Origin: Rhizophagus irregularis
Lineage: Eukaryota
Length of the DNA stretch: 64,000 bases
Direction of reading: 5' to 3'
Assembly: GCF_026210795.1 (NCBI RefSeq)
Contig: NC_089429.1
Span: forward strand, 3,224,001-3,288,000
Position 1 is the stretch's first letter. Each line of letters opens with the position of its first letter. The position numbers and the translations under genes were made by a program. Shown one piece after another: positions 8,553 to 59,270 of the stretch. Under the pieces are notes generated by a model that searched no databases, had not been told where the DNA came from, and saw only the letters and a list, made by a program, of their open reading frames with translations.

Positions 8553-8652
8553 TTAAATAACTTGGCATCTAATAATCGTACAAAGATGTATCATAGCTTG
8601 TTAGAATCGTCTCACTGAGACGAATCGAATGGTGGTAGTTTTATCCTTTTCC

Positions 8653-12636: not shown

Positions 12637-12813
12637 TATACATGCCACCCAAATTATTTTGGACTGCCGTAATTATAAGTAAAATCCCAAATTCAATTAT
12701 GGCATCCCAAATTATTTTGGAACTTTACATAGTAAATTATATATAAACCGAATAAATTATGGCATCCCAAATTATAATTATGGCATCCCAAAATAATTTG
12801 GGCAGCATGTATA
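12637..12813. mobile_element. TATACATGC-family hAT-type MITE (intact, 177 bp)
   Basis: 8-bp TSD ATATCATG (12629-12636, 12814-12821). Inverted copy of 889-2272 without the insert. Confidence 0.9.
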
Positions 12814-29552: not shown

Positions 29553-30289
29553 TATATATATATATTAATAAAATTAATATTTTAAAAAAAAATTATTTCA
29601 GTATACTCTATATTATATGTATCATGTAATACTAGATTACTAATTAGTAATTACTATGGTGCAGAACCTCTATAATAGGAACTTAAAAAATTTTAAATAA
29701 AATTTGATTTTATGGTTGAATTTTAATTTTATAAAAAAAATTAAACTCCATTTATTAAAAAGAATTGATTTATAAAATAAAAAAAGTCTCAATTTTTCAG
29801 ATTATGTAAGCATCACGTGATACATATATTAACCAATCAGAAATTAGGATTTTATAAGTTATATGATATAAAATTTATATAGTAATATATTTATTTATTG
29901 TATTTCATTATAAACTGATGAATCAGGTATACAATGATAAGATTTGTATTTTATTATATGTATTTTTTGACCAAATTAAAAATTAAAGTAATACAGTCAA
30001 CTCCCTCTATAGTCACTCCCGTTATAGTCACATTCTACTATATAGTCACACCAGTTGAATGTTCAAAACACTTTATTATTAAAATCTATCCTATATAGTC
30101 ACAATCTATCTATAGTCACTATCACACCTATCCTCAAAAATCTTATATTAAAAAGAACCGTTTATAATCACAGTTATATAAAGAATATATTAAATAACTT
30201 GGCATCTAATAATCGTACAAAGATGTATCATAACTTGTTAGAATCGTCTCACTGAGACGAATCGAATGGCGGTAGTTTTATCCTTTTCC

Positions 30290-31266
30290 TTTGCTAGTAT
30301 TTACGGCCAGACCACCCATTGCCTCTTGGCAGACTAATCTCGGCTGTGTCCTATCATCTTCAATGGGTAACCATTAAACCGAATACTTAATTCCTCAGGT
30401 AACAGCACCACTATAGAAGACATCCCCCATCGGGCCATTTTAGGCTGATCTGAAGCTAGGTACACACCGCCTACTCATCCTATACCCATTGCATGATACT
30501 GATACTCAATTTATTTTACGACCTTTAGAGAGCATCTACTTTCATGGAGGACTTTCGACAGGTAACATCAACCATCTAGTACCCTTCCATACCACCATTT
30601 TAGGTACTAAGTCTCACTCAAAGCCACTACAGCCCGCGATTACCCAGCACCGATAGTACAGTTGTTTACCCCAAGTGGTATACTTTGTAGTGACCACTCG
30701 AACAGGAAGTAGCAGGCATCTGTCCAGGATCACCCCTTATGGTGGGTATCAACCACCAGGGATCACCAACCAGAACCCAAGGAGTAGGGAATCGAACCCC
30801 ATAACCATGCTACCTGTTCTGTGCACGAACACTTTGGTTGGCCTAAGACCTAACAGAAGGTCAAACTACCACTAAGATATTGCACCCTCAGCTTTACCAT
30901 CTAGGACGACCATCTAGCCATTACTGACCCCAAGTGGTATCGTAGAGTGACCACCCGGACAGGAAGTCCCCCCAAAGTATAGTAGTGACCTCAAGGACAG
31001 GACTGCGCACATACCAATGGCCTCATAGGGAACGTTAGAAGGACACCACGACCCTTAGTTGAAATGTGCGGCCTAACCGTACACACTAATTCACCATGAT
31101 GCAGTCCAACTACACTAATCCCTGTACCTTCACGCTATTGGTTGTAGCGTCTGCAGTAAAATTCTTTTTATTTTCGTGGTCATGGAAATCGAACCTGTGA
31201 TCTCACCATACTCAGGCTTAATGAGGGTCTCAGTGACTAACCACTGAGATAGGGTGACCAACCCTT
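30290..31266 (-). mobile_element. Full-length uninterrupted tRNA-headed SINE-like element (977 bp), type-1 3' end
   Basis: Cloverleaf-like head with GGTTCGATTTCC; second B-box GGTTCGATTCCC near 30790; no T5 run on the sense strand; no conserved ORF; flanked by the 16-bp repeat. Confidence 0.8.
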
Positions 31267-31539
31267 AGTTTTATCCTTTTCCTGTGCAAACAGTCTTATG
31301 ACTTTATCTTTTATTTATATTTTAAATTTCGAAAACATAATCGAACAGTATTACAAAAATAAGAAAATAAACTAATAAAAAATAAAAAGAGTAGCTTCAC
31401 GACTCATACAAGTAAAGAAATCTAAACTAAAATAAAATCAAAGCAAAGAAAAACTAAACTATTACAGAATCGCATACCCCAACTTTACCCGAAGGCCAGT
31501 GTGAGTCAACTATCCAACATCCAAAAATCCAGTTCGTTA

Positions 31540-34500
31540 CCAGAAAGAAATCCTAAGAGGTTGAACTGTTAAGTGGCGCAGAAAATCCAGGTGCGAGATC
31601 CATGATCACCCCGAATTATAGAAGAGGATATCCAAGAAATCCAGGAATCCTGAGAAACTGTCGCCAAAGAAGAGTTGTGTTTTTGTGAAGAAGTAGCAAA
31701 AGAGGAGAAATTTGTATACGGGCCATGTAATTTGGAAGCAGCCGAGATACCCTGCGACTCTTCCCAAGCATGGAAAAGAACGTTCTGACACAACCAAATC
31801 TCACCATAAAGTTCGACTTGGAAGTTATTAAGAAGAGGAGAAATAATCTTATATATGACAGAAAGAGGAAAATGTTGGTGTAAAAATGCCGTTAAATGCG
31901 CAGGTAAAAGTCCTCTAGTAAGCCAAAGACAGGACGGAGAAGGAGAATCATAGTCCCAACAATCTAGAGCAAAAAATCCAATTTGGAAGGTAATATCCAG
32001 AGGTTTCAGAGTTGAGAACGAAGATAAGCAGGAATCTCTAAATTTAATAATTTCAGAACGATGTGTCAAGCACGGATTTAAATCCGGAAGAATATAAGGA
32101 CAAGTCCAAAGATAATTCAAATCTTCAGGAGCTGAGTTGCATTGTGGACAAAGCCAATCGGGAGAATACAAATAAGGTTTGCGTTGTTGAAGAGTAGTTA
32201 AAGTAGGCAACATATCCAAAAGGAGTTTGATACGAAAGATCCAGAATTCAGAACGACCATTCTTATGCGAAGCAAAACCTTTAATTTGTGAAAGGCAAAA
32301 ATATATACCAGCCCAGTCAAAAAGCGAAAGAGAACCAAGAGCAGTAAAGCGTGCCAGTGAACAGAAAGATAAAAGAGCACGAGCGTCTGCTATAGAGCGG
32401 AGAAAATGACGAATATTCATGTCAATAGGCAAAGAGTTAAAAGTTAACAAGCATGGAGCATAACAAAATGCCAAAGGCGAAACAGTAGGTTGTAAAGACG
32501 AATGAGCATCTTTAGCCAGAGAATCCGCTTGTATATTGTAGATGTCATCGCCATGAGCAGGGACTTTAATCAAATCGACTTTAAGATTACGATCCATGAT
32601 AAGTTGTCGAATAAAAAGCCAAAGAAGATGATTAGGTTCTCGAAGCAACTTCGGTGAGAAGGGAGAATCAACTAAACGTGTCCATAATGAAATTAATTGA
32701 CTACAATCAGTATAAATGGAGATTGAAGAGTCATGGGAGAGGGCATTCAATCCTAATAAAACAGCATAAATTTCAGAACGTAGAGCTGAAGGGAAACAAG
32801 AAGGAAGATGCATGGATGAAGATTCAAGGATAAATCCATCATCATCAAGAGCAATCCAAGCAGAAGCCATGGAAGAAGATAAAGAATCTTTGGCAGGACG
32901 GAAAGAACCATCGGTATACAGAGATTGTACAGAAGGCGGCAAGACAACTGCTTCTATCCCATTCTTAACGGGAGGAGAAAGGGTGAAAGAAGCGGTTGAA
33001 GGCGGGTTCGTCAAGTGAACAAGAGCCAAAGAGGTAGCAAAACTCCAGGAAGTAGATAAGGTTATGGGAAGATAAGCCGCAAATACTTTGGCATTTCTGG
33101 TAGGATAACCCATAGTATCCGATAGGATTACATTGAAAAAACACTTTTCGCTATTACAGCGTTGTTTAATGGCAGATTTTCTGGACAATGCGGGAATGTT
33201 AAGAGCACAGCCAGGACAAGGGTTACAGGTTCGTTCATCAGCCGAGGTAGATACAGGAAGCCAATGAGACATAATAGCCGAGTTTTGTTTACCTGAGGTG
33301 ATACATACACGGCCAACAGATAAAGTTTGAGTAGCAGAATCAAGATTAATAGCCCATTGAGGATAAAAATGATAATCTTTAACAGTATGATCTAATAAAC
33401 AAGGAGAAGCTAAAGTAAAAGAAGAATTAATATAATACAAAGACAAAAGTAAAGAAGAAGAAGAAGAAGAAAGTAAGTTATTTTTAATAAAATTAAACCA
33501 AATAGGAATTCGTCCTTTACGACCAATAATACCAAGGTATTGAAGATCAAGCCAATTCATAAGATAGCGTCCACAAGGAGAAACCAATTGAGCAAGCACA
33601 AATAAATTCAAGTTTTTCCAAAGTTTCCAACTTGTTTGAAATATGGAATGTGGTAGAATAGATCGAGGTAGAGACGGATATTGTGATTACGCCTCAGAGG
33701 CCGGAAGGAAAGAGACCACGTGATATTAAGTCGTGAAGAAAACAGAAGGGCATTAAATAAAGTATGTGTCCGTAAAGAAACAATTTGTGACCACGGCTCT
33801 AGGTTGATGATAGTTGGACAGCTTTCCGCGCTTAAAAAGCCTTGAAGATATGAAATAGCATAACTGGCAAACTCTCTAAAATCTGGATGGGTAAAAATTT
33901 TTTGCCAAGAAGCTACATGAGAAGAGAGAAATCAGTAAAAGGCATTTTGAATAGAGAAAGGAAGTTTCAAGAAGAGCAAAGCTAATGGAGTAGTAGCGGC
34001 GAGACCAGCTTTCCTTCTTATGACTGAAAACATGGGTGTAACAATTGATTGAATAGTGTTTTCAGAGAAGAGAGTAGTTTGAAGTCGAAATTTCAATCGC
34101 GGCAGGAGGACAGCATTGTAGAGATAGGCCACATGTTGCGCCAATAGTTTTTTTGGGCTAAGGAGAGCAGCCATATCTTTGACCATAGAGCGCGCTTGTT
34201 TAAGCACAAATTGGGAAAGAGGCAGATAAAGAAAACCAAACTCCTAAAAAACGGAAAGAAGTGTTCAAAGACAAAGAGGAAAGGGAGAGAGCCAAGTTGG
34301 AAACTAAAGGCGAAGGTGAAAGATCAAAAACAATCCTCAAAGAAGGGGAAGAAAACGAAAGAAGAACATATTTAGCTGAATTAGCTTGAACATTATTTAA
34401 AGTATAAAATTCAGCAGTAATAGAGAGGCGATCTTCAATTCCAGCTTTCGAAGAAGCTACAAGTGTAGAATCATCCATGAAAGTTAAATGTGAAATTGGT

Positions 34501-36923
34501 AAAGAATGTTGTTCAAATTCAAGTGGAGAATAATCTAAGAGAGCTGAAGATTTCAAGACAAAAGGATCTCGTTCATCTCGATTTAAAACAGTGAGTAGAG
34601 GGTTCAAATAAATAACCCAAAGTAAAGGCGAAATGATTTCTCCTTGATCGATACCAACACGTATTCAGTAAGCAGCTGTATCGCCATGACAAGTTAAAAT
34701 TTTGTTGTTACGTCATGTAAAAAGATTCAAAATAAATTGCACTAAAAGTGCAGGAATGTGTAATCTAATTAAAGCTAATTTAAGCATATTCAAATCCATA
34801 GAGTCAAAAGCTTTAGAGATATCTTGAGAAACGATCCATAGTTCCTGATCATCAGAAGAATCATGTTTATGCTGATGGATAATCGCATCAAGCATTTTGA
34901 TAGGAACATCAGTGGAACCACCAGGTAAACCCGCAAAGTTGCCTCCTTGCAGAATTTTACCATCAGCAAGGATATTAGAAAGACGATTAGTGACAACCTT
35001 AACTACACATTTTCGAACCGTTTCCAGAAGAGTAATAGGTCGAGTGTTCTTGAGCTGAGCATCAAAGTCATGAGGTTTAGGAATGGGATAAATCACGGCT
35101 TCACGCCAGTCAGCAGGAATATCACCGCGAGAAAGGCAAGTATTGGCAATTAAAAGAGAGAAATCCAAGGCTTTACCGGACAAATATTTAATCATCTCAT
35201 AAGAAATTTTTGAAGGGCCGGAAGCTTTGTTATTAGGCATGGAGGAGATCACAGCAGACCATTCTTGTAGAGAAATAGGTGCCAATACAGGATCATATAA
35301 AGAAGCGGACACACCAGAGAGGGGAGTGTAAGCTTATTGCCACCGAGCAGAAAATAAAGCAGTGGAAGAATGATGGACCAACGGAGGAGAAACAATAGAT
35401 TGAAAATGGGCAATAGCAGCTTGTTTAATGTCCGAAAGATCCGTCAAAAGAGTAGGAGTAGAGTCCAGGACAACCAGGACGTGGTCAAGAACAATCGAAC
35501 GTTTTTCAACTGATAGAGCAGAGTCTATAAAGGTGCCGAGCGAATTCGAAAAGTGTTCATCACGTAATGCGGTATAGTATTCCACAGAGTCTGTGAGATG
35601 TTGGGCGAATTTAGTAGATAAAAAGGCAGAAACTAAATTCTTCTGCGATCGTAAAAATGATTTAAATGCAGATACAGGAGTTGTGGAATAGGTAGGAACT
35701 GAATAATCAGGAAGCAAGGATGCAAAATTCTCAAGATGGGAAGGTAAAGCAGCAGTCATTTGCGCAATTTGAGTAGGCCGATTGGAACGACGAGTAGTAA
35801 GGCGATATAAAAATCGATCTAAAAACTTGTTAATAGCAATAAGTTTAGTTAATTCAGGAGAGTACGAATGTCGATGTGTGTTGGAGACTTTTTGAAAGGG
35901 TAATGTTTCAATTGCAGCACTAAGTATAGCAGCTTTCAAAGCATGCCACATACGATCAAGAGAAAGAGAAGAGAAATCAAGACGAGAGCTATATTGTCTA
36001 TCTAAATAAACTCCAAGAGAATCATCCACTTCAGCAGTAAAATTATTCCATTGTTCAGTTGAAGTGGAAGTATAAGAGAAAATAGTACGCATTTCTTTTT
36101 TTTGTTTAAGTCGAGATTTAGCCAAAATAGCAAAACAAGAACTGAAATCAAAAATAGTTGTAAGAACTTTGTGATCGGTAAAAGGACGATCCAGAAGATT
36201 AGGACAAGCGACCACTTGCGAAAAAAGAGCAGGAGCAGGAAAACCAGGCGAAGACCAGATATAATCCAGTCGGGAAGAACCATTGGCATAATAAAAAGTG
36301 GGATCAGGACCATTAATAGAAGAATGAGCTTGATGGTCGGTAAAAACCCAAGAAGAAAGTAAACGAAGAAGTTTAAAATGATTGGATGAGTAGTGGGAAT
36401 GAGCGACTTCATCAATGTTGAAATCGCCAAGGATAATTACAAAATAATCATTAGTTCAGGCATGATCGAGCCAAGAAAAAAGTTTGGCAATAAGATCATT
36501 ACAAATAGATTGATGAACAGAACCAGAAGGAGGATAATATAAAGAAATAATAGAAATTTTTGTTTGATGAAAAAAAAGGTCTAATTTAAGAAGACGACCG
36601 TTCCAGGAATCAATTGTTTGAACATGTTTATGAAGGGGATTACGTAATAAAATACCAACACCGTCATGAAGACGAGAAGAAGATGAGCAGGCCCAATAGG
36701 ACCTAAAATGATGTTGGAAATGTTCATTTTTGAAAATAAATTTAGCATTTGAAGGGGAAAGGCGGGTATCATTAATAGATAAAGCTCCAAAAGAAGAATG
36801 AAGAAAAAAATTAAGCAAATGTTGCTGTCGAACCGGAGAACATAAACCATTAACATTAATTTGACCAAATTTGATAAGAGGAGAAGGGTGAGGAGAAAAG
36901 TTATGTATTTTGTTGTCCATCAT
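31540..36923 (-). pseudogene. LINE A ORF2 (APE - RT - RNase H - CCHC), broken
   Basis: GQINVNGL, SRLDYIW, TDHK; KASGPSKI, RPITLLE, QDISKAFDS, FMDD; LYTDGS, RSEIYA, YTDC, KVPAH..NIQADSLAK; CPQC. Multiple stops and frameshifts. Confidence 0.92.
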
Positions 36924-37766
36924 TACTACACTATGATAAAAGGGTAAGTAGTAAAGGGAAATAATTGGGAGTTAAGAATTATTGGGAGTTCGCGTTATCG
37001 CAAGCAGCCAAGAATTGTTTTTGTTGAGCCATGCCTTGTTGAACTGTTTTAGTGAGTTCGGTAACTGTAGCAGTAAGAGAGGAAAGGCGATCTTGTGGTG
37101 AAGTGGCAGGACCAAGGATCAAACTCATACGGGGAGGGAGAGGAATATGCGATTGAGCAGTGAAATTGGGGCCATTTGGTGGCGAAGCTGGAGAACTAAA
37201 ATCCATGAGATTGTCACTAAGACGTCTAGGATCAGAGGATTCAGCATTATCCCATCCTTGATTCATAGGCTCTGGTACAGGAACAAGGGGAGTCTGAGGA
37301 TGCGGGATTTTGGAGATAAGAGGAGGAGAAGAAGAATGTTGATCTTCCAACCATTTGACATGATGTTGAAGTTGGGCAAATTCTGTAGTGAGGTGAGTAA
37401 TCTCTTCAAGTATAATAGTGATTTGTTCAGTAATATATTGCCAATCCATCAAAGGCGGAACATCCATTGCAGCAATGTCGTGATCCAAATCCGATTGAGA
37501 AGAACGATGAGGATGACGACGATTATTAGGATGAGAGCGTGAACGTGAAGATCTAGGGCGAGATTTGGATCGGGAAGGAACTCTTCTACCAGCGGTATCA
37601 GCATAAGAGCTGTGTTCTGAATTAGCAGGACGCGCAAAACGATTATGACGTTTAGCGGGGTGGGAAGGAGGTAAGTGTTTGTTGTATAATTCACGCAATT
37701 TATCATTGCTAGACCATGGACGAGAAGGACGTTGCGGAGCACGTGATGAAGCACATTTGTCCGGAT

Positions 37767-38863
37767 TAGAGCTCCGCACGGGTCAGGTCAGGTCGAGTAA
37801 TTTGTCTGATCCAAACCGAAAAATTTTTATCAGGTCGGGTCGGGTCGGGTAACCTGCTCTGACCCGACCTGACCCGTCTGACCTGAAAGTATTCAGGTCA
37901 TTTTTCTATAAAATAATATGAAAAAACGCTGTTTTGGCGATTTTTTTCATAAAAGAAGTGGGGAAAAATGCCGTTTCGGCATTTTTCCATTAAATAATAT
38001 GAAAAAACGCTGCTTTGGCGATTTTTTTTATAAAAGAAGTGAAAAAAATGCCGTTTTGGCATTTTTACATAAAATAATATGAAAAAATGCCGTTTTGGCG
38101 ATTTTTTTCATAAAAGAAGTGAAAAAAAATGCCAAAACGGCATTTTTCCATAAGATAAATGAAAAAATGCCACTTTGGCGATTGTTTCATAAAAGAAGTG
38201 AAAAAAATGCCGCTTTGGCAATTTTTTTCATAAAAGAAGTGGAAAAAAATGCTGTTTGGGCATTTTTCCATTAAATAATATGAAAAAACGCCGTTTTGGC
38301 GATTTTTTTCATAAAAGAAGTGGGAAAAAATGCCGAAATGGCATTTTTCCATAAAATAATATGAAAAAAGCCGCTTTGGCAATTTTTTTCATAAAAGAAG
38401 TGAAAAAAAATGCCAAACCGGCATTTTTCCATAAAATAATATGAAAAAACGCCGTTTTGGCGATTTTTTTTCATAAAAGAAGTGAAAAAAAATGCCGAAA
38501 CAGCATTTTTCCATAAAATAATATGAAAAAACGCCATTTTGGCGATTTTTTTCATAAAAGAAGTGAAAAAAATGCTGAAACGGCATTTTTCCATAAAATA
38601 AAATGAAAAACGCCATTTTGGCGTATTTGTTTATAAAAAACAATGCTGAAACGGCGTTTTTTTCATAAGGTAACATGAAAAAACACCATTTCAGAGTATA
38701 AACATTTTTTTTGAGCTAAAGTATTCGGGTTAACAGGTCAATCGGGTCAGGTCAAACCTGTAACCCGACCTGATACCGGGTCACGAATTTGACAACCTGA
38801 CCTGAATATTTTGGGTCAATCCGACGGGTCACCTGAATTGACTCTTACCCGTGCGGAGCTCTA
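37767..38863. mobile_element. TAGAGCTCC-family non-autonomous hAT element with an internal ~40-bp minisatellite
   Basis: Perfect 17-bp TIR TAGAGCTCCGCACGGGT; TSD GTCCGGAT/GTCCAGAT; tandem repeats at 37905-38690. Confidence 0.92.
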
Positions 38864-39339
38864 GTCCAGATTACAACCAGGGCGACCACAACGATGACAA
38901 AGAGAGGAGACTTCGGTAGGTTCATGCCAAGTAAGGCCAGTAGATTTGAGAGCACAAGTGATCCCCATAGCCGATTCTTTAGTAGCAGCAGAGGAGAAGT
39001 GTACATAGGCATAAGGTTTGGCCCTATAAAAAATATGTATACGGTTTTTATACTGTATATACGTATTTTTGATACAGTTTGCATTTTTACATACGGCATA
39101 TCAGTATAATGTATACTGTTCGCAAAATGTGCTTAGTAAAAAATACAATAAAGTATACGGTAAACATACTGTGTGATACAGTATATTAAATTCATACGTC
39201 TATAACGTATATCATTTCTACTGTATATCAGTATTTTGTATACGGTTCACAAAAATATTGTAAATAAAGGATACGGTATACGTATTATTCTACAGTATAT
39301 TAAAATTCATACGTTTATAACGTATTTTCTACAGATATA

Positions 39340-41085
39340 CACAGGTCAAATAAATAAAAATTAGATTTTTGCCCTTTTTAATATGGCTGTCTGATTTTTT
39401 GGCAATTTTAATATAATATTTCCGATTTTAATAATATTTCTGATTTTTAACATGAAATTGCCGATTTTTGGTTATTTGTAATAGGATTTTTCGATTTTAA
39501 TATATAACATGTGATTATGTATTACGGTTTAATATTTATTTATTAACTTAGATTTTTTTTTTTTATTTCAGTTATAATTATTTTTTTGCCTTAAAAACTT
39601 TACTAAAATACTTTTTAAATACTTTATAAAATAGAATTAAAATATTTTTTTTCTTAAATATAAATACATTTAAATTAAATAACTCATAATTTAAAATATA
39701 AACAAATATTATATTTTTTTTATATATATTTCAAAGTATGGTTTGAGCATTTTGGCTGAAGTAAATCTTATTCTTTTAATTAAAAGTAGTTTAGTAAGTT
39801 TAAAACTGTTAAGATCATAAAAGTACAGTTAATATTTTTGGAATTATTTACATTTTTTATATTATACAATAGTATTAAGTTACAAATTTTTTTACCTTCA
39901 GAGCGTATTTTGAGATCTTTAGCCAAAGTAAATCAACTTCTTATATTAATTGTAAGTTGTTCGGCAGGTTAAAATCTACTTGGATATTAATTTTCACGAA
40001 GGTACAGTTAATACTTGATGAGTTATTTACAATTTTCACAACAGTACTTATTCACGACTTTTATTTTTTTCATTTTGTCACTTCAGAGCGTATTTTGAGC
40101 ACTTTATCCAAAGTAAACCAACTTCTTATATTAATTGAAAGTTGTTTAGCATGTCAAAATCTACTTGAATATTAATTTTCACGAGGGTACAGTTAATACT
40201 TGATGAGTTATTCACGATTTTCACAATGGTACTCATTTACGAATTTTATTTTTTTCCGTTTTGTCACTTCAGAGCGTATTTTGAGCACTTTAGTCAAAGC
40301 AAATCGACTTCTTTTATTAATTGAAAGTTGTTTAGCATGTCAAAATCTACTTGAATATTAATTTTCACGAAGGTACAGTTAATACTTGATGAGTTATTCA
40401 CGATTTTCACAATGGTACTCATTTACGAATTTTATTTTTTTCCGTTTTGTCACTTCAGAGCGTATTTTGAGCACTTTAGTCAAAGTAAATCGACTTCCTT
40501 TATTAATTGAAAGTTGTTCAGCAGGTCAAAATCTACTTGGATATTAATTTTTACGAAGGTACAGTTAATACTTGATGAGTTATTCACGATTTTCACAACG
40601 GTACTCATTTACGAATTTTATTTTTTCCATTTTGTTACTTCAGAGCGTATTTTAAGCACTTTAGCCAAAGTAAATCGACTTCTTTTATTAATTAAAAATT
40701 GTTCAGCAGCTTAGAATCTACTTGAATATTTATTTTAATGAAGGCACAGTTAATATTTGTGGAGTTATTAATTTTTTATAATTGTGCGTATTGCATTAAA
40801 TTACAAGTAAATTTATATTCTTAATGTATTTTGTTTAAAATTAATTAATTATTTATTTAAGATTAGTTTTTTATTTAATATTGCTTAATAAAATATTTTT
40901 TAAATTTTAATTCAATATTACAATATAATTTTTTATAAAAATATATATTTCATAATGTATATACAATTTTTTTGTATAGTGAAAAAACTGAAAAATGTGG
41001 TTAAGAATTGGTAATACGGCTGTAAAAAGTCACAAATCGGACAAATATAGCTAAAATCAGCCAATTTTTATTTATTTGACGTGTG
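39340..41085. mobile_element. CAC-ended (CACTA-like) element carrying ~185-bp repeats
   Basis: TIR CACA(G/C)GTCAAATAAATAAAAATT; TSD ATA. CTTCAGAGCGTATTTT recurs at ~39896, 40081, 40267, 40453 and 40638. Confidence 0.75.
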
Positions 41086-41157
41086 ATAGAGTAAGTTTTT
41101 CTACACTTTAAAGCATCAAACAATACTAGTATCTGCTAATATGTACTACCCAAAAAC

Positions 41158-41400
41158 TAGAGGTAGGGTCCGGTCATCCGTTCAATCCGTTATTTCATCC
41201 GATCACGTGATGTAGATCACGGGTATGTAGATCATATCCTTTTAGGCGATACCCGTTCCACAAAAATATTTTTCTAAAAATCGATCTTACCGATTTTGGA
41301 AATTAGTGTAACATTCGACCTAAAAAAGGAAATGATCGACACAAATCACGTGATTTGACCGGATGACCGGATTTACGTTTTTCACCGGAGCCTACCTCTA
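41158..41400. mobile_element. hAT-type MITE
   Basis: TIR TAGAGGTAGG(G/C)TCCGGT; TSD CCAAAAAC. Confidence 0.9.
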
Positions 41401-41539
41401 CCAAAAACTCACTGATGTAAAATCACAATTATTAAAAAATTCACAAGAATTTTTGTTAATACTGTTTAATTTTTAAGTTCAAAGTCCGATTGATAATACT
41501 AAATTCAAAACTCAATTATAAATCATTTTTATAAATTAT

Positions 41540-43220
41540 AATTTAAAAATTAAGCAGTATTAAGGAAAATTCTCATGAATTTTTCTTAATACTACTTAAT
41601 ACTAATTTAACTAATTTAGTATTAAGGTTTTAATTTAAAAATTAAGCAGTATCAAGGAAAATTCTTGCGAATTTTTCTTAATACTGCTTAATTCTAATTT
41701 AACTAATTTAGTATTAAGGTTTTAATTTAAAAATTAAGCAGTATCAAGGAAAATTCTTGCGAATTTTTCTTAATACTGCTTAATTCTAATTTAACTAATT
41801 TAGTATTAAAGCTTTAATTTAAAAATTAAGCAGTATCAAGGAAAATTCTTGCGAATTTTTCTTAATACTGCTTATATCTGCCAATTCGTGAAATTAGCCA
41901 AACATAAAGATTTGCACATTTTAACAAGAATTATGTTTCACAAGCTTAAATTGTATGTGTTACATAATCAGATGATCTAAATCTATCAAAAAATAAAAAA
42001 AAATTTTTTAACGTTTATTCAAAAATAACAATGGCAACTACTTTCTTTTACAATCACTTTTCAATCACTTTTCAATCAGATTTTTGTTAGGTGACTTAGA
42101 AAAGTTTATAGGCATATATAGCAGGTTTTTTTTAATCAGTAAGTAAGAAAACAAATATTAATAATTTTTATTAATAAGAAAAATCTTTTTTCATTTATTT
42201 TTAACCTTATTTCCTTTTTTTTTTTAGTAAAAATATATACAAAATAAAAATGTGAGTTATGATTTAGAGTTTTTGAGATGTTTTTTTTTGTTTTTTACTA
42301 TACTAATTTTATTCTACTTGTTAATTACTTTTTAAAATTGATTTTATTAATTTATTCAATTTAAAACAGAAATGGCAAATAAAAACTTGTTAAGTAAAGT
42401 AAAAAGAGCCCAATAATACCTGTAAAGATCATCTTTTGGTAAGAATTATAATTTTAAAAATTTTTGTGTCAGAGTTTTATTCAATTAACAAAATCGTTAA
42501 TATCTCGGCGTACATGTATGCTAAACACATATATTTATATTCATATGAAAGCCCAGAATCTACTCTACCTGAACGAAAAAAGATTATTCAAATCGAATTA
42601 CTAGATGTGAAGATATTAGCGATCAAAGTCAAAGGTTAAAAATAAATATATTGAACGTAATTATTCAGCAACTTGTGATCCAATTCATGTGATATTTGGT
42701 TTATGGATAGCTCTTGATTACCTCTTTCTAATGAATATAAATTCATTCATCTAGCACACATACACGTTAAGTTATTCAATATTTTGTCATGACAATTATA
42801 TTTAAATTTTTTAATTTTAATGATATTATTAAAAAAATCAAAAAATAATATAATCAAATCAATTTTATTTATATCAGCGGTGTGAATCTATCATTTTCAT
42901 GTAAGTTGTATTAGCATTTTCTTAATAAAGTTAGTTTTTTGAATATAAAAACTTAATTCCATAAATCAGTCCATATGTTAATTCTAATTTAACTAATTTA
43001 GTAGTATTAAGGCTTTAATTTAAAAATTAAGCAGTATCAAGGAAAATTCTTGCGAATTTTTCTTAATACTGCTTAATTCTAATTTAACTAATTTAATATT
43101 AAAGCTTTAATTTAAAAATTAAGCAGTATCAAAGAAAATTCTCAAATTTTTCTTAATTCTAATTTAGCTAATTTAGTATTAAGGCTTTAATTTAAAAATT
43201 AAGAAAAATTTTTACAAATT
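41540..43220. repeat. 92-bp hairpin-containing tandem repeat, interrupted by an insert (41875-42977, TTA flanks)
   Basis: ATTAAGCAGTAT at 41549, 41641, 41733 and 41825; the array resumes at 42978. Confidence 0.85.
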
Positions 43221-46175
43221 TTCTTATTAAAAAAAAGAACTTTTAAATTACTAATTAAACTTTAAAAACAATCTGTATGATTTAAATTTTAAAAAAATAC
43301 TTCTGCTTTTTAATTTTCGCATTTCTACATTTAACCAATTAAAATTCAGCTGATCGCCGATCACATGCATTAATAACACGTTATTGTTTATTTTTTGTTT
43401 ATTTTTTCAAAAATATTCTTTTCTCTTCTTTTTTTTAGAAAAAAAAGACAATAAAAATGAATACCAAAATTATTTTAACATATAATAATAAAAATTAAAT
43501 AAAAAACTTATTTTGATAATATATAATATATATATTTGTACCAAACTACTAATTATACAAAAAGTGATATGCACGTATATCAATTAACAATTACTTTCAC
43601 TAATATCTCTCTGGAATTGTAATGGTGAATTTTAACAATATTAATTAAACAACTATATGTACACCGTTTTATGTTTTTATTTTTATATTAATATTATATG
43701 TTAACATATATTAATTATATTTTTTTTTTACTTTTATGTATTTTATTTAATTTTTTTAATATATTACTAACATTACTTCTATCGTTTTATTACTTTTTTA
43801 TATCTAACTAATATATTAATAATATTACTAACTTTTTATTATTTTTTTTTACTAACCTTTTATTATTCCTTTTTTATATTTAAAATAATGATAATATTAC
43901 TAATTAAATTTCTTTTTTTTTTGTTTATATTTTGCTAATATTATTTTTTTTACAAATAGTATATTATTTTATACTAGTTTTTTATTTATATTATTTATAA
44001 AAAAATATTTGTATATTTAATATTATTTAATAAAAATTTTATTGATTATAAATGCATTTTAAATTCTGTTTGCAAATATAAAATATACGATTTAATTGAA
44101 TAATATATACTATTTATCAGTACAAAATATGCAGTTTAAACTGGAAAAAAGTACTGTTTATCAGTATAAAATATACAGTTTATCCTGGAAAAGTATACTG
44201 TTCGCATTATAAAATATAAAACAATATACTGTTTATTGGTATAAAACATACGGTTTTTCTACTGTTTACAAGTATAAAACATACGGGTGAAACTGGAAAA
44301 ATATACTGTATGCAAACCGTATATATGATACGGTGTGCAGAATACCGAATATATACAGTATGTGAAAATACTGTAATTATACGGTAATAATACTATAAAT
44401 ATACTGTTCGCAAAATACGAAAATACAGTATACTAACCGTATATATATTTTTTATAGGGTGGGATTGTAAGAGTTGTAGGAGAAAGGGATGTTAACGCTT
44501 TTAGCGGAAACTTCTTCGGCAATTTCAGAAAGGTCAGCGGCAACAGAACCGCGTAGCGCCAGCAAGTGCAACATGAGCGCGTTTGACAGCGCGTTGATCA
44601 GGTGAATGAGAAGCAGGACAGACGCGTAAGCAGTATCCAGTACAAAGTACAGCCCACGTGTTTTCAAATTGATCCATGGAGGCGGCGGAGTCAAAAACTA
44701 TATACGCAGTGTGATAAAGTTTTGAAAGACGCGTGCGGCAGTGGGTAACAATACCATAACGGGAGAATGTGCCCCTTAATTGTGCATCGGTGACAAAGAG
44801 AGGGATGTCGGTAACTACCAGGGTACAAAGCTGTTCATCTGCCTTTTTAGCAGATGGGTCATGCTCGTGGAACTGTAGATCATGCAGGGAGGCGATAGGC
44901 GTAGCGATAGCTTTTTCCATATCAGGTTTGGAACGAAAGTAGACAACGATAAGTTTATTATCGCCTGATCCTTGAGTGGTAGCTTTACTACCATAAGAGG
45001 AAAAAGAGGAGAATTCTTGGTCGGTCGCGTCGCAAGCTTCGTGATTGGTTTTGAAGTGGGTCAAAATTCTTCAATAGTAGAGGGCGCAGCCGCAGCGCCC
45101 GCCGAAGGGGGAAGATTGTATAGCGGCAGTAGACGTGTCAGGAGACGCAGCGCGTTCGAGGTTCAGGAGGTGAAATTTCCACAGATTTTCCTTTATCTGC
45201 AGAGTTAGAAGGGGAATGTTGAGTCGTCATGGGAAGTACGAGTCGGGGAGGCGAAGGGGACGCGTTGGTGTCAACGAGAGGGGGAGACAAAGTTGAAGTA
45301 TTTTCCTGAGGAGCAGGAGGAGTCAAAATATTGTCTTGGTCCATAACAGGTTCAGAAGAAACCCGTGTGCGTTTTGCAAAGTTGTCGGTCAAAGGTTGCG
45401 AAGTAGGACCAGGAGTAGAAGCAGAAGAACCTTGACCTTGAACGTTGCCAGAAGGAGGACTCTGGGCAGGACGTTTTGGAGCAGAAGTACCAGAAGCTTT
45501 ATTATTTCGTCTGTTAGTCATAGCTAAAAGTAGAAGGGAGAACTAAAATATGTAATAGTTAGTAGTAACGCAAAGTAAATAATAAAAATACTTCAAAAAA
45601 ATCTTTTTTATTTTTTGTCGCAATATTGTCATGAAGGCAGTTTTATCCTTTTCCTTTGCTAATGTTTACGGCCAGACCACCCATTGCCTCTTATGAGACT
45701 AATCTCGGGTCATGTCCTATCATCTTCAATAGGCAACCATTATACCGAGACTTAATTCCTCAGGTAACAGCACCACTATAGAAGACATCCCCCATCGGGC
45801 CATTATAGGCTGATCGGAAGCTAGCGAGACACGCCGCCTACTTATCCTATACCCATTGCCCATTGCATACTGATACTCAATTTATTTAACGACCTTTAGA
45901 GAGCATCTACTTTCATGGAGGACTTTCGACAGGTAACATCAACCATCTAGTACCCTTCCATACCACCATTTTAGGTACTAAGTCTCACTCAAAGGCCACT
46001 ACAGCCCGCGATTACCTAGCACCGATAGTACAGTTGTTTACCCCAAGTGGTATACTTTGTAGTGACCACTCGGATAGAAGTAGCAGGCTTCTGTCCAGGA
46101 TCACCCCTTATGGTGGGTATCAACCACCAGGGATCACCAACCAGGACCCAAGAAGTGGGGAATCGAACCCCATAA

Positions 46176-49100
46176 GGGGCGTGCCAGAAATCAGCTGATT
46201 TCACTCAATTAGTAAGGCTAACCCTCCCACCCCCACCTGATCATTTAATCGATCATTTTGATTGGCTAAAACATTTTATATATAAGATTATAATTTCGCT
46301 TTACATCTGACTATCCGATCATTGGTTGAAAAATTTAATAATAGATATTGATTTTACATTGTTTAAAAAAAATTTTAATGATAAATAAAAAATCTTTACT
46401 ATCTATTTTCAAATAAAGTATAAATACATAAAAAAAAAAAAATAAATCATGCAAAGTTTTTTAAAAGCACCAAATTTTAGTAAAACGTTTTTTTATAAAC
46501 AACCACAAAATAAATACCAAGAATTTTGTAATGCATATGCATATTACAAGCAAGCAACGCTATGTGATCCTAAATTAAATCGTGAAAAATTATCCCAAGA
46601 ATGTGCAAGTGAATGGAAAGATGTTAAAAAACATGATAATGTTTTTATTGAAAGTAAAATTTGTGAATATTATGAAACTATACCTACCACTGTTCGTTCT
46701 CATCAACAAATTCTTATATCACGTAATGCAACGCCTAGTTCTCATCATACTCCTACACCTTCAACCTCAAAGCAATATAAAGAATATATTGACATTACAT
46801 CTTTACCAAAAAATGCCAAATCGCAATATGATGCAGCTGTAAAAATTAATTCAGCTATGAAAAAAATATCTGAGTGTGAACAAATGATGGAGATTGCATC
46901 AGACGATTCAATGAAAGTTATGTTATCATCTAAATTAATTGAAGAACAGAAAGTTGTATCAGAACAAAATGCACGGTTAAACAAATTAAAACGTCATGCT
47001 GATGCACAAGCAAAGCTAGCAGCAAAAAAGGACAAACTTTTTGAAGAGGGAATTGTAGAAAGATATGATACTCCAGGAAGGCCATCTGCAGCTATGAAAG
47101 ACCCAGAACTATGGGATAAAATACATGATAGTATTGAATTTGGAGCTGCTCATGCTAAACGTAGAAAAGTAGTTATTAAAGTAAGAACAATAAAACATTT
47201 ACGTGAAACTTTAGAAGAAAAATATAATACCTATTTATCTCGCCAATGCTTGTCAACTTATCTTCAACCTCGCCATCAGAACACTTTTGCTGCACGTCGT
47301 CATCATCATCCAACAAAAGTAGGCCTTGCCTCTGTAGCACGAACAGAAATGAAAACTCATATTGATGAGCATTATTGTCTAGCTTCTGTTAAAGCTGCAA
47401 GAACATTTGCTGAAGTTTTTGCAGATGAAACAATTATTATTTCTCAGGATGATAAGGCAAAAATTGGATTGGGAATACCTGCAGTTGGACGCACATTTAA
47501 AGCAATTCAAACAACAAATGAACCAGTAACTGTTGAGGATCATGATTTTCCGATGGGTTCAAAGATGAAATTAATACCATCTGTTTATCTAATAATTAAT
47601 CCAGCTGATTCAAGTGATACTCTTCGAACTGGGCAGCTCTCTATTTTCATTAGACCAGAATATTTTATTGGAACGTCATCTGCAACTCATATGGTTGATT
47701 TAAAAAATATTATTTCTAATGAAAAATTTTCTGCAACTTTAAAAAAAGAAAATGAAGTTAAACCAATTTTAATTCTTCTTGTTGATGGTGGGCCAGATGA
47801 AAATCCAAAGCATATGAAAAATATCATTCAATATGCTCACCTTTTTCATACCCTTGACTTAGATTATTTAACTATTCGCACTCATGCTCCAGGTCAAAGT
47901 GCATATAATCCAGTAGAACGAAGCATGGCATCTTTATCTGCAAAACTTGCTGGTATTACTTTACCGATAGGAGAATTTGGATCACATCTAAATAGTCAAG
48001 GAAATGTAGTGGATGAAGAATTAGCACGAAAAAATTTTGAATATTCAGGTAAAAGGCTTTGTGATATATGGGAAAGAGATGACATACATGGAAAACCTGT
48101 TACGGTTAAATATATCAATCAGGAAAAAAACCCGTTTGATAATGAGCCTCCAATATTATGGAACTGGATAGAACGTCATGCACAGATGTGTCGTTACTCA
48201 TTAGATATAAAAAAATGCAAAGACCGAGAATGTTGTTACGAGTACAGAGCGCCAGATGTAGCAACCCTTTTGGACGAAAATAATGGATTTCTTCCTTCAA
48301 TCATAAAAGGAAGAGATGGTCATTTCATTAACTCAATTCATGCTCTTGATTATTATGATAAGCTTAAAATTCAAGAGTATGATCGTTATTGTCCTTCAAT
48401 TTCACAGGAATTATATTAACGCTTATGTTGTAATATATGCGGCAAATATTTTCCAACTCTTAAATATATATCTGAATACAAACGAAATATACATTCTTTA
48501 AAACAAACTGCCAGGAAATCAAAACGAGTCCAGAAACAAAATAACGAAACAGAAATGGAATGTGTATTTATTGTAAATACAAACTTTAATGAAGCGGAAG
48601 ACATATTTCAAAGAGTTCCGTGGCAAGAAACAGTACAAGATTTTTGTGCAGTTCAGTCAGACGAAGAATAAATGGTATTGTTTTTAATGTTTATAAGATA
48701 TAATTTTTTTTTTATTTTCAGTGAATTTGTGATACATAATACAACATAAAACTGAATAAAGAAAAAATTTGCCGAACTATATAAAATGTAAATCAATTTG
48801 CCGCAGTGAAACTAATTAACTAACTAATTTCTGATTTCTGGCTATAGAGTTTCAGTCCGAAACTAAACTGTTCCTAAAAAAAAGAGAACGTAAGAAAGCC
48901 TTTTTTGGAAAAAATTAATCAACATTATCTCCCAACCTTCATTTACCTGTATTTTCGTACACCAACCTCCAACAACCCTACAAAAAGAAAAATAGAAATG
49001 TTAGTATATTCGTTTTTAAAGGAAACAACGAAAAAACTCCTCTCCCGGTCTCTCCTTACCAAAATCCAGAAGTTCAGTGACTCCGGTCATGCTGTTCGTC

Positions 49101-49627
49101 CGGAATCCCTATAAAAAAGAATGAAAAAATAAATTAAATTTCCTAAAAAAAACAAAATTATAAAATAACGAAAAAAACCTCTCTACCTCAATTCAAAAGT
49201 CCAGTCACGTTTCTTGTCTGGAAATCCTACAAAAAAAGAAAAATATATATTAGTTACGTAGTTGCATTCTTTTTAAAAAAAAAATCAAAAACGAAAAACC
49301 TCTCCTTCGGACTTTCCTTTCTCAATTCCAGAAGTCCAGTCCTATTTTTCATTCGGAAACCCTACAAAAAAGAAAAATAAAATAAATGTTAAATTTATTA
49401 AAAAAAAAATAAAAAATATATCGAAAAAACTTTTTACCTCAATTTCAAAAAGTCTGGCCTGTTTTTCGTCCGGAAACCTTACAAAAAAGAACCTAATTTC
49501 GGCAGTCGACCTTAAATTATTATATGTAAGAAATTAACCAATAAAAAGCATGTCACGTGATTAAAGACCTGATCCGCAGACTGAACCCCCCACCCCCTAT
49601 CAAATCAGCTGATTTCTGGCACGCCCC
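46176..49627 (+). mobile_element. Zator DNA transposon
   Basis: Perfect 26-bp TIR GGGGCGTGCCAGAAATCAGCTGATTT; 3-bp TSD TAA. Confidence 0.9.
46449..48671 (+). CDS. Zator (TP36-like) transposase: 656-aa ORF plus 83 in-frame codons after one premature stop
   Basis: SQDDKAK, DHDF, VDGGPDENP, APGQSAYNPVERSMA. After TAA 48417-48419 the frame continues RLCCNICGKYFPTLK...H to a stop at 48671. Confidence 0.85.
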
Positions 49628-50107
49628 TAACCATGCTACCTGTTCTGTGCACGAACACCTTGGTTGGTCTAAGACCTAACAGAAGGTCAAACTACCATTA
49701 AGACATTGCACCCTCAGCTTTACCATCTAGGACGACCATCTAGCCATTACTGACCCCAAGTGGTATCGTGGAGTGACCACCTAAACAGGAAGTCCCCCCA
49801 AGGTATAGTAGTAACCTCAAGGACAGGACTGCGCACATACCAATGGCCTCATAGGGAACGTTAGAAGGACACCATGACCCTTAGTTGAAATGTGCAGCCT
49901 AACCGTACACACTAATTCACCATGATGCAGTCCAACTACACTAATCCCTGTACCTTCACGCTATTGGTTGTAGCGTCCGCAGTAAAATTCTTTTTATTTC
50001 CGTGGTCATGGGAATCGAATCTGCGACCTCACCATACTCAGGCTTAATAAGGGTCTCAGTGATTAACCACCGAGATAGGGTGACCAACTCTAGTTTTATC
50101 CTTTTCC

Positions 50108-50260
50108 TTTGCTAATGTTTACGTCCGACCACCATTCACTCTTATGAGACTAATCTTGGGTCTGTGTCCTATCATCTTCAATGGGCAACCATTATACCGA
50201 GTACTTAATTTTTCAGGTAACAGCACCACTATAGAAGACATCCCCCATCGGGCCATTATA
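50108..50260 (-). mobile_element. 5'-truncated SINE-like unit (153 bp), type-1 3' end
   Basis: Matches 45655-~45807 and lies between two copies of the 16-bp repeat. Confidence 0.85.
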
Positions 50261-50762
50261 AGTTTTATCCTTTTCCGATTACTGGCTGACGAGTTATTCA
50301 ACAAAATGTTAAACATCGGCATTATAATATTTTTTGATTTACGTTTACTGCGCCATTTAACATTTTGCTAGATTTCTCGGTACCTAGTGATTGTAAAAAG
50401 ACGATTTATAGCTCGTTGGAATCGCCTCATCGAGACAAATCGAATGGTGGTAAGTTCATCTTTCTGTGATCTGTGATCAATATTGATGGAGTTATTACTT
50501 AAAAACCATTTAATATTTTTTAATTTCGGAAATTAATTTAGTGATTGGATTTCGACGTATTTTATACCATTAGAACCGTCTCATCAAGACGAATCGAATG
50601 GCGGTAAGATCATCTCTCTACGATTAATATTGGTGAAGTTACGATACAATAAAGTTTTAAGTATAATTTTGGCTAAAATTATGTTAATTTTTGGCCGGAA
50701 TTATGATATGCAAATATAAGAAATTTTTTATATAGTCACATCTCTTTATAATCACCAAATAT

Positions 50763-51231
50763 TGATCCTGGGTAACACCTACAAGCTTACTGTCCAGGTG
50801 GTCACTACAAAGTATACCACTTGGGGATTACAACTGTACTATCGGTGGTGGGTAATCGCGGGCTGTAGTGGCGCTTTGAGTGAGACCTGTTACCTAATAT
50901 GGTGGTATGGAAGGGGTCTAGATGTTTGAAGGTTATCGACGAAAGTCCTTCGTGACGTAGTAGTGGTGAGGGGTTATAATAGTAGCCGTTACAGTATCGT
51001 ACAACAGATTAAAGGACGAGTAGGGTGGTGTTCGGCAGATTCGAAGGCCTTCGGGTCCCTGGGATAAGTCCTTGCGTTTCGGTTGTGGTGTTGAATTGTC
51101 CCTGTTAAAAAGGTGGCGGGGATGGTTACATCATGGCTTAGTGAGGATGATGCAATGAACGACCTACCTCCATAGCCTTCAATAGAGGGTGCGGAAAGTA
51201 GTGGCCACTAAACTTACAAAACACTTGTAAA
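50763..51231 (+). mobile_element. 5'-truncated SINE-like unit, type-2 3' end
   Basis: Collinear with ~59812-60805 minus the MITE; ends CACTTGTAAA. Confidence 0.85.
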
Positions 51232-51555
51232 ATAATCACCAAATATGAGGATCATTGCAACTCTTTCCTGAATTTTTGAAAATACTAATAAAATTAATTT
51301 TTGAAATTTTCGTTCGAAAATTTCTAAGTGCTCGTTCATAATACTAATATTTCCACAGTTGCTTTCCTCTTTACTGAGCTTTATACTATGACTACACCTC
51401 CAGCTCCTTTTGTTATTAACCCAGATATTCTGCCGCCACCGCGTCCTGTTATCTCTGCTTCCCTTCCCTTCCAGGACCGACCCCTTTACCTTTCATTTCC
51501 CACCTAATACCGCCGGCGTACCAAATAAACGTTCGCGTACTGTCTCGAGGACGCT

Positions 51556-53520
51556 ATGAATGTTGATATAACTTCGCCCTCTGCTCCTGCTCCCAACCTT
51601 ATTTCTACCGTTCCTTCTGGTCTTCCTGTCAACAAAGTCCATGTGATTACACCTCCTCAAAATACTACCACTCCTGTTGAAACTGTTGATGCTTCTATCC
51701 ATGCTCCCTCTAACACCAGTAATAAAGGCAAAGCTGTCGTCTTTGATATCCCAGAACGACGACCATCTCCTGATGGGAATGCTGCTGCTATCAAATCCGC
51801 ACCTTCTCGTTATCATGCTGTGGCCTACTTACACGACACGCCTGACGCGTTCAAAGCTAAATTCACCACCAACTGCTCCATGTGTGACGAAGTGGATTGT
51901 TCGCTCTCCTGTTATTCTTCTTATGGTGCTCGCGCACGATGTGAAGGATCAGCTGATAACAAGAAAATCCTTATCTTCTTCAATAATCATGATGATTATA
52001 CCGATTGTATCACCTCCCCACGTGCCGATCTCCTTGATTTGGCCTTCAGTCATTATTCTCCTGCAGACGCCAAGCTCAGTGATGAAATGAAGTCTTTGTT
52101 CGTCACTGATATCCCACTTTTCCTAACCGAGACTCAAGTCCGTCAGGCATTTTCCCGATATGGCACTGTAATCAAGTGCAAACTTACTCCTAGGAAATAT
52201 TACTATAATGGACATATCCAGTTTTCCTCCGCAGATGCAGTTACCCAATTTAATGATATTTGGACGATCATTTGCCTTGGTAATTCTTTACGTGTCTGTC
52301 TGGCATCTTTTTCGAAATCCCAACGCGATAGCCGCAGAGAACATGTTGCTATCCTCGCCGGCATCCCAAAGAATATTAAAGAAGCTGACCTGTTGGAAAT
52401 TGCTACTCAAGTTAACGCTAAGGCCCTTAACGTTCCTCTATCTATCAGTTCCTACAAGCCTAAACCCTATGTATATTTGAATTTCTCTTCATTTGAATCT
52501 CTTGAAGCTGCCAAAGAAATGACCGTGGCTTTCCGCGGCAAAGGATTAACATGGCACCCTCCCAATGAAGCACAAACTTTATGCCAGGTTTGTGGGCGTC
52601 CTGGTTGTTCTCCCTCTGTATGTAATCCTCATACCACACGGAAAGTGGATGATCGCCTTAATAAACTTTATTCTCGCTTCAATGCTGGCTCTAGACGTGG
52701 TCATCAGGATTCACGCCAATCACGTAAAAATTCCAATTCCCGTTCAAGATCGCGATCCAATTCTAGATCCCGCAATAATAATTCCTCTTCATCCCGCTCC
52801 AACAACAATAACAATAATACTAACACTTCTCGTCCCAATACTTCTCGAAGTAACAACCGGACCAACAATAATACTAATAATCACAGGAACAATGAAAATT
52901 CTTCCGGTTCTACTCAACCTCCATATAAACCTCATTCTGTCAGTTATACACCACCTACTTCTCCATCTGACAATCCTGCCCATACACTTCCTCAACATAT
53001 TATTGATGATTTAAAGGTGCAGATCAAAGAGATCGTTAACACCCTACATACTCTAGAGGAAACTGTCTCTTGGATGAATGATACTATCACGTCCCATGAG
53101 TATAGGCTATCTGAGCTTGAATCAATGATGAATTATGACAACCCTGGTGACTCTGATTTGTATCTGCCTCGTGATGATCATGAAAATCAAAATCATTCTT
53201 ATGATAATGGATGGGATGATGCCCCACCCCATGACACGAATTCTGGATTCAATCTTCCTCTCCATACTTCCCCTTCTCTCATGGATACTTCTCCTGATGC
53301 TTCTTTCTCAGCTCTGGATCCTAACTCCGTCTTATCAAGAAGACATGTCCCGTTGCCTAACTCCCGACCTACTATTATTGCTCCCGATGCTAATACTTCC
53401 CGTTTGCAATTGGAGATTTCTAATGTCACCAATACACAAAAGAATCTTTCTGCCCAACTTGGTTCGATTATGGAAAAATTGGACTCCTTCTCTCCCTCAA
53501 AAACCCTCCCCTTCCAATGA
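51556..53520 (+). CDS. LINE B ORF1 protein (RRM domains, CX2CX4CX4C knuckle, SR/N-rich region, coiled coil)
   Basis: 654-aa ORF with LFVTDIP..AFSRYGTV, YVYLNF and CQVCGRPGCSPSVC. The true start may be ATG 51388 with a frameshift. Confidence 0.85.
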   Translation: MNVDITSPSAPAPNLISTVPSGLPVNKVHVITPPQNTTTPVETVDASIHAPSNTSNKGKAVVFDIPERRPSPDGNAAAIKSAPSRYHAVAYLHDTPDAFKAKFTTNCSMCDEVDCSLSCYSSYGARARCEGSADNKKILIFFNNHDDYTDCITSPRADLLDLAFSHYSPADAKLSDEMKSLFVTDIPLFLTETQVRQAFSRYGTVIKCKLTPRKYYYNGHIQFSSADAVTQFNDIWTIICLGNSLRVCLASFSKSQRDSRREHVAILAGIPKNIKEADLLEIATQVNAKALNVPLSISSYKPKPYVYLNFSSFESLEAAKEMTVAFRGKGLTWHPPNEAQTLCQVCGRPGCSPSVCNPHTTRKVDDRLNKLYSRFNAGSRRGHQDSRQSRKNSNSRSRSRSNSRSRNNNSSSSRSNNNNNNTNTSRPNTSRSNNRTNNNTNNHRNNENSSGSTQPPYKPHSVSYTPPTSPSDNPAHTLPQHIIDDLKVQIKEIVNTLHTLEETVSWMNDTITSHEYRLSELESMMNYDNPGDSDLYLPRDDHENQNHSYDNGWDDAPPHDTNSGFNLPLHTSPSLMDTSPDASFSALDPNSVLSRRHVPLPNSRPTIIAPDANTSRLQLEISNVTNTQKNLSAQLGSIMEKLDSFSPSKTLPFQ

Positions 53521-58990: not shown

Positions 58991-59270
58991 CAGATTGGAT
59001 CTTCGGATATGCTGGATAGTTGACTAACATTGGCCTTCGGGTAAAGTTGGGGTATGCGTTTCTGTAATAGTTTAGTTTTTCTTTACTTAATTTTATTTTG
59101 TTTAGATTTCTTTACTTGTATGAATCGTGAAGCTAGTTCTTTTTATTTTTTATGTTTAATTTTCTATATTTTATTTGTAATATTGTTCGATTTGAGTTTT
59201 GTACTTTTCGTTTAAAAATTTATAATAAAAGATAAAGTCATAAGACTGTTTGCTCATAATCACCAAATAT

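Follow-up and report, generated by a model that had tools for sequence, protein, structure and literature searches.

Tandem LINE and tRNA-headed SINE units separated by copies of their target site in Rhizophagus irregularis, probably accumulated by repeated insertion at one position

We analysed a 64-kb stretch of the Rhizophagus irregularis genome (assembly GCF_026210795.1, contig NC_089429.1, positions 3,224,001 to 3,288,000; hereafter the window) that holds two arrays, A and B, of long and short interspersed nuclear elements (LINEs and SINEs). Array A is punctuated by the 16-mer AGTTTTATCCTTTTCC. Exact search of the window recovered the five copies bounding the array (Table 1), a sixth at 8637 overlooked by the original prediction, and none on the minus strand; 3.6e-5 copies are expected per 64-kb strand from composition. 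The five lie at the boundaries of four same-strand LINE and SINE units, precisely where that prediction had placed them. The units measure 977, 14356, 4437 and 153 bp between 16-mers. All are on the minus strand, with LINE frames on that strand and the tRNA-like head of the SINE at the high-coordinate end, and nothing stands between them except one identical target site duplication (TSD). Self-comparison identified three of the four units, together with the stretch after 8652, as copies of the same 1-kb element. The LINE A unit reaches 14.4 kb because two elements with inverted ends are nested in open reading frame 1 (ORF1), and the second SINE unit (S2) reaches 4.4 kb because a 3.5-kb DNA transposon is nested within it. 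The host of array A had been described as a miniature inverted-repeat transposable element whose sequence runs into and out of the 16-mers. A dispersed repeat does so, whereas its classification as such an element is unsupported because no inverted arm was found to the right of the array.

The SINE has a net length of 977-1009 bp and 46-48% GC. Its head is tRNA-like with A and B boxes, as in tRNA-derived SINEs, and was called as a tRNA-Leu(AAG) pseudogene in two of four copies by ARAGORN at a relaxed threshold of 80, compared with 4 of 500 shuffles; at the default threshold or at 90 ARAGORN made no tRNA call in the heads. The sense strand has no run of five or more T, which would be compatible with RNA polymerase III (Pol III) transcription and says no more than that. 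Rfam models gave 30 matches in the window, all under the gathering score and mostly microRNA models on inverted repeats, with no ribozyme or known non-coding RNA among them. The head pattern had no match in viral and metagenome contig collections. The SINE comes in two variants with a common 5' part and different 3' parts, SINE-A in array A and at 8653 and SINE-B in array B. Copies S1 and S2 of SINE-A differ by 5.2%; the two SINE-B copies, with their distinct 3' segment, differ by 11.4%. Alignment of the copies gives a mosaic appearance. S1 (30290-31266) contains a 43-nt internal repeat and, near 30800, another B-box-like hairpin, which together suggest a dimeric origin of the SINE.

Both LINEs contain the Pfam domains RRM_1, Exo_endo_phos, RVT_1 and RNase_H in the frames scanned, and no integrase family was detected among the 20 window frames scanned with Pfam. 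They thus have the make-up of LINEs of the apurinic endonuclease (APE) type, with an AP endonuclease and reverse transcriptase (RT) in ORF2, an RNA-binding ORF1 and no integrase. The TSDs, 16 bp in array A and 15 bp in array B, fall inside the 7-20 bp range of such LINEs. LINE A is broken, with five stops in frames aligned to the relative P0038 in addition to frame changes. LINE A and LINE B share about 70% protein identity. Their C-terminal protein halves are only 28-58% alike, and their 3' untranslated regions (UTRs; 31283-31672 and 58851-59255) lie within an 84% alignment, closer than the coding regions (about 70%). The RT frame of LINE B is 98% identical to an R. irregularis protein, and all named matches among the 120 listed of 283 are from Rhizophagus. 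Ten distant relatives are environmental APE-RT-RNase H proteins, and the PDB matches R2 and L1 score alike. Going by these comparisons, we leave both LINEs without a clade name, having considered the I group, R1, L1/Tx1 and Proto1, because named references are lacking.

SINE and LINE have no terminal homology. The SINE tails differ from the LINE termini, and the best blastn match of the SINE to LINE B and the 5' part of LINE A had an E value of 0.32. An internal motif matching at 21 of 26 positions is common to SINE-B and both LINE 3' UTRs and has no counterpart in SINE-A. It was equalled in 14 of 2000 shuffles, or 149 of 2000 for the truncated SINE-B, and was one of several tests; we regard it as a possible lead. 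The window has just four copies of a motif with a potential UUCG loop, in both LINE 3' UTRs (31495 and 59034) and both SINE-B copies (51048 and 60625); the motif is a candidate recognition element for the RT.

LINE B family members also appear close to one another elsewhere. Of the 26 primary LINE-B-family gene models listed for one public R. irregularis assembly, with at most 15 members per cluster, 12 had a neighbour with the same domains within 10 accession numbers. Once three models picked for their closeness were dropped, a hand count gave 9 of 23, with 0.3 expected at random under a uniform distribution over an assumed accession span. Accession order was checked as a proxy for gene order on one pair, and regions rich in transposable elements (TEs) cluster in any case.

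Array B begins 470 bp past the last 16-mer of array A and served as a control. Its units are bounded by four copies of a 15-mer, ATAATCACCAAATAT. LINE 3' ends and SINE 5' heads are homologous between the two arrays; their repeats differ. Contigs of four public sequencing runs (X1, X2, X6 and X11) were aligned to window positions 49500-61200 at 90% likeness. Three of the four (X2, X6 and X11) contained the empty site B as a joint from 50747 to 60806, with 15-16 letters fitting both sides and support from 6, 3 and 6 contigs from three studies. X1 lacked this joint; its longest pieces are identical to the window, and the run may not be independent. The empty site B has a single 15-mer and is represented by several variant host-repeat copies. 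At site A, the 16-mer sits where other copies of the host repeat have related but different 16-mers, and these homologous positions are followed by GATT or GATC, as is the last 16-mer of array A. A single copy in the empty target is thus seen directly for array B and, by homologous position in host-repeat copies, is indicated for array A. The repeat is target DNA rather than an element terminus, because homologous LINE and SINE ends are joined to different repeats and the 15-mer is single when the site is empty. The original prediction had taken the 16-mer to be a duplicated local target, and array B bears this out. A fixed element terminus, the alternative raised at the time, fails since the repeats differ between the arrays. 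The host repeat has inverted arms on either side of target B (50728-50755 and 60837-60864), so that the empty site could form a hairpin.

Table 1. Features of arrays A and B and of related loci in the 64-kb window
Feature	Position	Strand	Remarks
Sixth 16-mer (8637-8652), same host arm and full SINE-A (8653-9927)	8553..9966	-	inverted arm piece past SINE 5' end
Left arm of host dispersed repeat A (the flank downstream in element sense)	30190..30273	+	98% to 8553-8652; 72-89% to other window copies
16-bp TSD copy 1	30274..30289	.	16-mer search
SINE-A copy S1, full length	30290..31266	-	977 bp; tRNA-Leu(AAG)-like head; 47% GC; no poly(A)
16-bp TSD copy 2	31267..31282	.	16-mer search
LINE A, broken	31283..45638	-	about 7.8 kb net; ORF1 with RRM; ORF2 APE-RT-RNase H-CCHC
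Nested element; inverted ends, 80-bp tandem repeats	37767..38863	.	about 1.1 kb; in LINE A ORF1; ends approximate
Nested 5.4-kb element	39022..44459	.	48-bp inverted ends; splits LINE A ORF1
16-bp TSD copy 3	45639..45654	.	16-mer search
SINE-A copy S2, full length	45655..50091	-	983 bp net; 5.2% from S1
Nested DNA transposon	46175..49628	+	3454 bp; 27-bp inverted ends; 657-aa frame; inside S2
16-bp TSD copy 4	50092..50107	.	16-mer search
5'-truncated SINE-A	50108..50260	-	3' 153 bp; 5'-most unit of array A
16-bp TSD copy 5	50261..50276	.	16-mer search
Array B	50748..60820	+	15-mer at 50748, 51232, 59256 and 60806
Units of array B			truncated SINE-B of 469 bp; LINE B of 8009 bp; full-length SINE-B of net 1009 bp, carrying a 526-bp insert

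The same contigs hold other arrangements at the two sites, found among the joints listed (15 of 159), rows placed between letters (12 of 93) and loose ends (24 of 1521). At site A, the 5' end of a full-length SINE abuts the 16-mer and native flank in an opposite-strand joint (side 45; X2 and X11) and in a joint from 50088 to 50262 (X11). A SINE whose 5' end is 107 nt short does so in X1 (side 29) and X2 (side 19), as does a SINE with 103 nt left in X11. At site B, X11 has joints running from LINE 3' end through the 15-mer to a LINE 5' end and to a truncated LINE, and a loose end in X1 runs from LINE 3' end through the 15-mer into native flank. The varied SINE 5' ends at the 16-mer support, but do not prove, separate insertion events at one nucleotide, and the full-SINE form would be the first step of growth at the 5' side.

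In target-primed reverse transcription, the target is nicked in a staggered fashion, cDNA is primed at the bottom nick and the stagger becomes duplicated. We consider it probable that both arrays arose by repeated insertion of this kind into the regenerated target duplication. The LINE endonuclease would favour one position in a host repeat present in many copies and make nicks there, spaced 16 nt for LINE A and 15 nt for LINE B; reverse transcription primed at the target would then copy either the LINE's own RNA in cis or that of the SINE in trans. After insertion, the 5' copy of the target would keep its native upstream flank and could be cut again, each round adding one unit and one repeat. 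The units likely arrived successively because the endonuclease re-cut the TSD left by a prior insertion. New units would join at the 5' side, as in R1 elements, and the two LINE subfamilies likely prefer different host repeats. The units derive from different source RNAs. The central claim of the original prediction, that a mixed array of LINE and SINE units grew at one nucleotide position, is supported by array B, by the empty site B and by the alternative junctions.

Several observations weigh against sequential insertion. The site preference is deduced from matches inside the 49500-61200 stretch, and sites A and B have no evident common motif on sequence comparison. Empty-site contigs were found for site B, with site A resting on host-repeat homologues. 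Several key joints are each one short contig in repeats, some with no side given. The copy at 8637 is possibly a DNA-level paralog rather than an independent insertion. In both arrays the sole truncated unit is the 5'-most, for which the chance is 1 in 12, and repeat length is constant within each array, the outer junctions in contigs being 14, 15 and 16 nt; both properties fit a single processive event somewhat better. Each SINE variant pairs with one LINE subfamily (n = 2 arrays). Private changes failed to separate unit ages, and they are more numerous in the 5'-most unit of array A (10 of 150 columns) than in the others (4, 4 and 6), the opposite of what is predicted if the 5' unit is youngest, unless it came from a divergent source.

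The locus of the sixth 16-mer differs from the arrays. No 16-mer is found at the 5' end of its SINE-A within 8553-9966; an inverted piece of the host arm is found there instead. The 3' end of this SINE groups with S1 at five of six informative columns. The arm differs at 2 of 100 positions and the SINE at 104 of 950 (Fisher p 0.002), while the SINE 3' part differs at 17 of 269 (p 0.12 against the arm). Because its SINE 3' end groups with S1, the locus may share the insertion of S1 and may later have been copied or rearranged as DNA; we did not count it as an independent hit. A similar junction of SINE head to a relative of the host arm (50405 to 59275) is present in three runs.

The properties listed against sequential insertion have been weighed in terms of an RT that jumps from the finished unit to the top-strand overhang, copies 16 nt, regenerates its primer and is primed on the next LINE or SINE RNA, ending on a truncated unit. 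Such a processive event would account for the truncation of only the 5'-most unit, for invariant repeat length, for the confinement of each array to one LINE subfamily and one SINE variant, and for unit ages that cannot be told apart. L1 ORF2p jumps onto new templates and exposed genomic DNA, and one RT copies several templates successively into concatemers (PMC10830420). Those concatemers, however, run from template to template with no TSD between units, whereas arrays A and B have a target duplicate at every junction. The contigs in which a full SINE abuts 16-mer and native flank, a LINE abuts 15-mer and native flank, or a truncated LINE lies downstream of another LINE look like partial states and separate first insertions. 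Recurrence at the same nucleotide would in any case call for a site preference, and that alone is enough. No published case of a processive event of this kind was found in the literature searched. Partial states and one-nucleotide recurrence are simpler under sequential insertion, and we regard a single processive event as unlikely. The same judgment applies to the broader picture of a looping LINE enzyme that strings LINE and SINE RNAs together in one event, each subfamily with its own SINE variant and host-repeat target.

Growth at the DNA level would start from one or two insertions whose short repeats or SINE copies then underwent unequal exchange or duplication. It could draw on locus 8553-9966, where arm, repeat and SINE may have been copied or rearranged as DNA, and on the mosaic look of the SINE copies. 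We nevertheless find it quite improbable. The units belong to different elements and show distinct variants, the points of truncation coincide exactly with the repeat, and duplicating a SINE cannot yield a LINE; moreover, 15-16 bp is short for homologous exchange. That SINE-LINE-SINE moves as one composite, LTR-like (long terminal repeat) element would explain why SINEs flank the LINE on both sides in both arrays and why SINE variant and LINE subfamily go together. Yet the internal repeats are local target and differ between arrays, the flanking SINEs differ by 5-11% with one truncated, TG...CA ends and an integrase domain are lacking, and LINE-repeat-LINE and LINE-repeat-flank junctions occur in contigs; this we hold to be very unlikely. 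The resemblance to an LTR element is superficial, as originally proposed, and an LTR retrotransposon proper was rejected on the missing TG...CA LTRs and integrase and on a TSD of 15-16 bp rather than 4-6 bp. Misassembly of repeats gains some weight from the fact that, among the contigs listed, none spans either array. It too has a very small probability: the units differ from each other in variant and in nested inserts, two arrays follow the same grammar with different repeats, and independent runs contain the empty site and LINE-repeat-LINE joints.

Two further ideas were tried and rejected. Guidance by SINE RNA complementary to the target found no support in 56 SINE-by-target tests, none of which fell under p 0.03; with LINE ends, 2 of 24 tests did, both AT-rich. 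Ty3 and TRE5 are elements that target positions upstream of Pol III promoters. Targeting of this type fits the LINE-before-SINE junctions but not the SINE-before-LINE junctions with the same repeat.

Other elements also lie in the window. The 657-aa open frame of the transposon nested in S2 (46175-49628) weakly resembles ISAzo13-type DDE transposases, with a match to PF07592 (E 6.6e-5) below cut-off. A tandem repeat family with units of 184-186 bp occupies three places (14782-15323, 27697-28893 and 39700-40785), the last within an element nested in LINE A. The minus strand also carries fragments of another, more distant LINE, with APE/RT-like and ORF1-like matches, at 11900-13700 and 15800-17050.

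A SINE and several LINE families have been listed for R. irregularis (PMC11075540), as has LINE R1 (PMC8647823). The terms 'tandem' and 'target site' are absent from the main text of the former, and 'sine', 'tandem' and 'target site' from that of the latter; the supplements and the TE library may contain these families. Such arrays were not found described for this species in the literature searched, most subscription papers being outside its scope. The most likely reading is that an arbuscular mycorrhizal fungus has LINE subfamilies that stack copies of their own and of a 1-kb tRNA-headed SINE inside other repeats. Elements targeting ribosomal DNA (rDNA) and RHS show the same safe-harbour habit. 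Stacks of this type are easily annotated as LTR elements. On this reading the arrays are ordered insertion records, by which strains of this largely clonal symbiont can be compared. Were the processive model to hold, target-primed reverse transcription would gain a further step, and the result would be relevant to multi-copy inserts in retrotransposon-based gene insertion.

Growth of array A had been likened to that of clustered regularly interspaced short palindromic repeat (CRISPR) arrays, in which the repeat is duplicated with each new insert and growth is possibly polar. The likeness is architectural only. CRISPR arrays have Cas1/Cas2, a fixed repeat and short unique spacers, whereas arrays A and B have a locus-specific target repeat, which is a by-product and no fixed functional repeat, and mobile-element inserts of 153-14356 bp. 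No Cas family was detected among the 20 window frames scanned, and the arrays bear no sign of processing or function. They are not CRISPR arrays. Closer relatives exist, and the novelty implied by the original prediction has to yield to them, since LINE/SINE tandems parted just by a TSD are already published in trypanosomes (PMC3820030) and R1 tandems in Drosophila (PMC2718515). TE dimers formed by double insertion, as described by McGurk and Barbash, keep the TSD in the tandem junction and include tail-to-truncated non-LTR junctions (10.1101/158386); these are mostly same-family pairs in Drosophila, whereas arrays A and B have 3-4 units of two element classes. An RHS hot spot and tandem Alu elements are covered by further citations (PMC7563717, PMC3415434).

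In Drosophila 28S rDNA, R1 forms arrays of APE-type LINEs parted by a 14-bp TSD and grown by insertion into the 5' TSD, including mixed R1A/R1B arrays (PMC2718515). Arrays A and B likewise have a target TSD between APE-type LINEs and a multicopy target; they differ in that the target is a dispersed host repeat rather than rDNA, SINEs are mixed in and site specificity is inferred. Membership of the R1 clade was rejected because none of the window's 30 Rfam matches is to an rRNA family and because the TSD is 15-16 bp, not 14. The trypanosome pairs ingi/RIME, L1Tc/NARTc and Tvingi/TvSIDER1 are tandems that combine autonomous with non-autonomous elements, parted just by a TSD and attributed to independent insertions at the same position (PMC3820030). 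Long and short non-LTR elements in TSD-separated tandem are common to both systems. The trypanosome TSD, however, measures 12 bp, and both the LINE and its short partner carry poly(A) and the same 5' signature of 76-79 bp (PMC3820030), whereas in this fungal host the TSD is 15-16 bp and the SINE is tRNA-headed, with no 5' homology to the LINE and no poly(A). The ingi clade was rejected on this TSD length and on the SINE/LINE 5' comparison (best blastn E 0.32). Collectively, arrays A and B probably work like the R1 and ingi/RIME tandems, yet by defining features they belong to neither clade.

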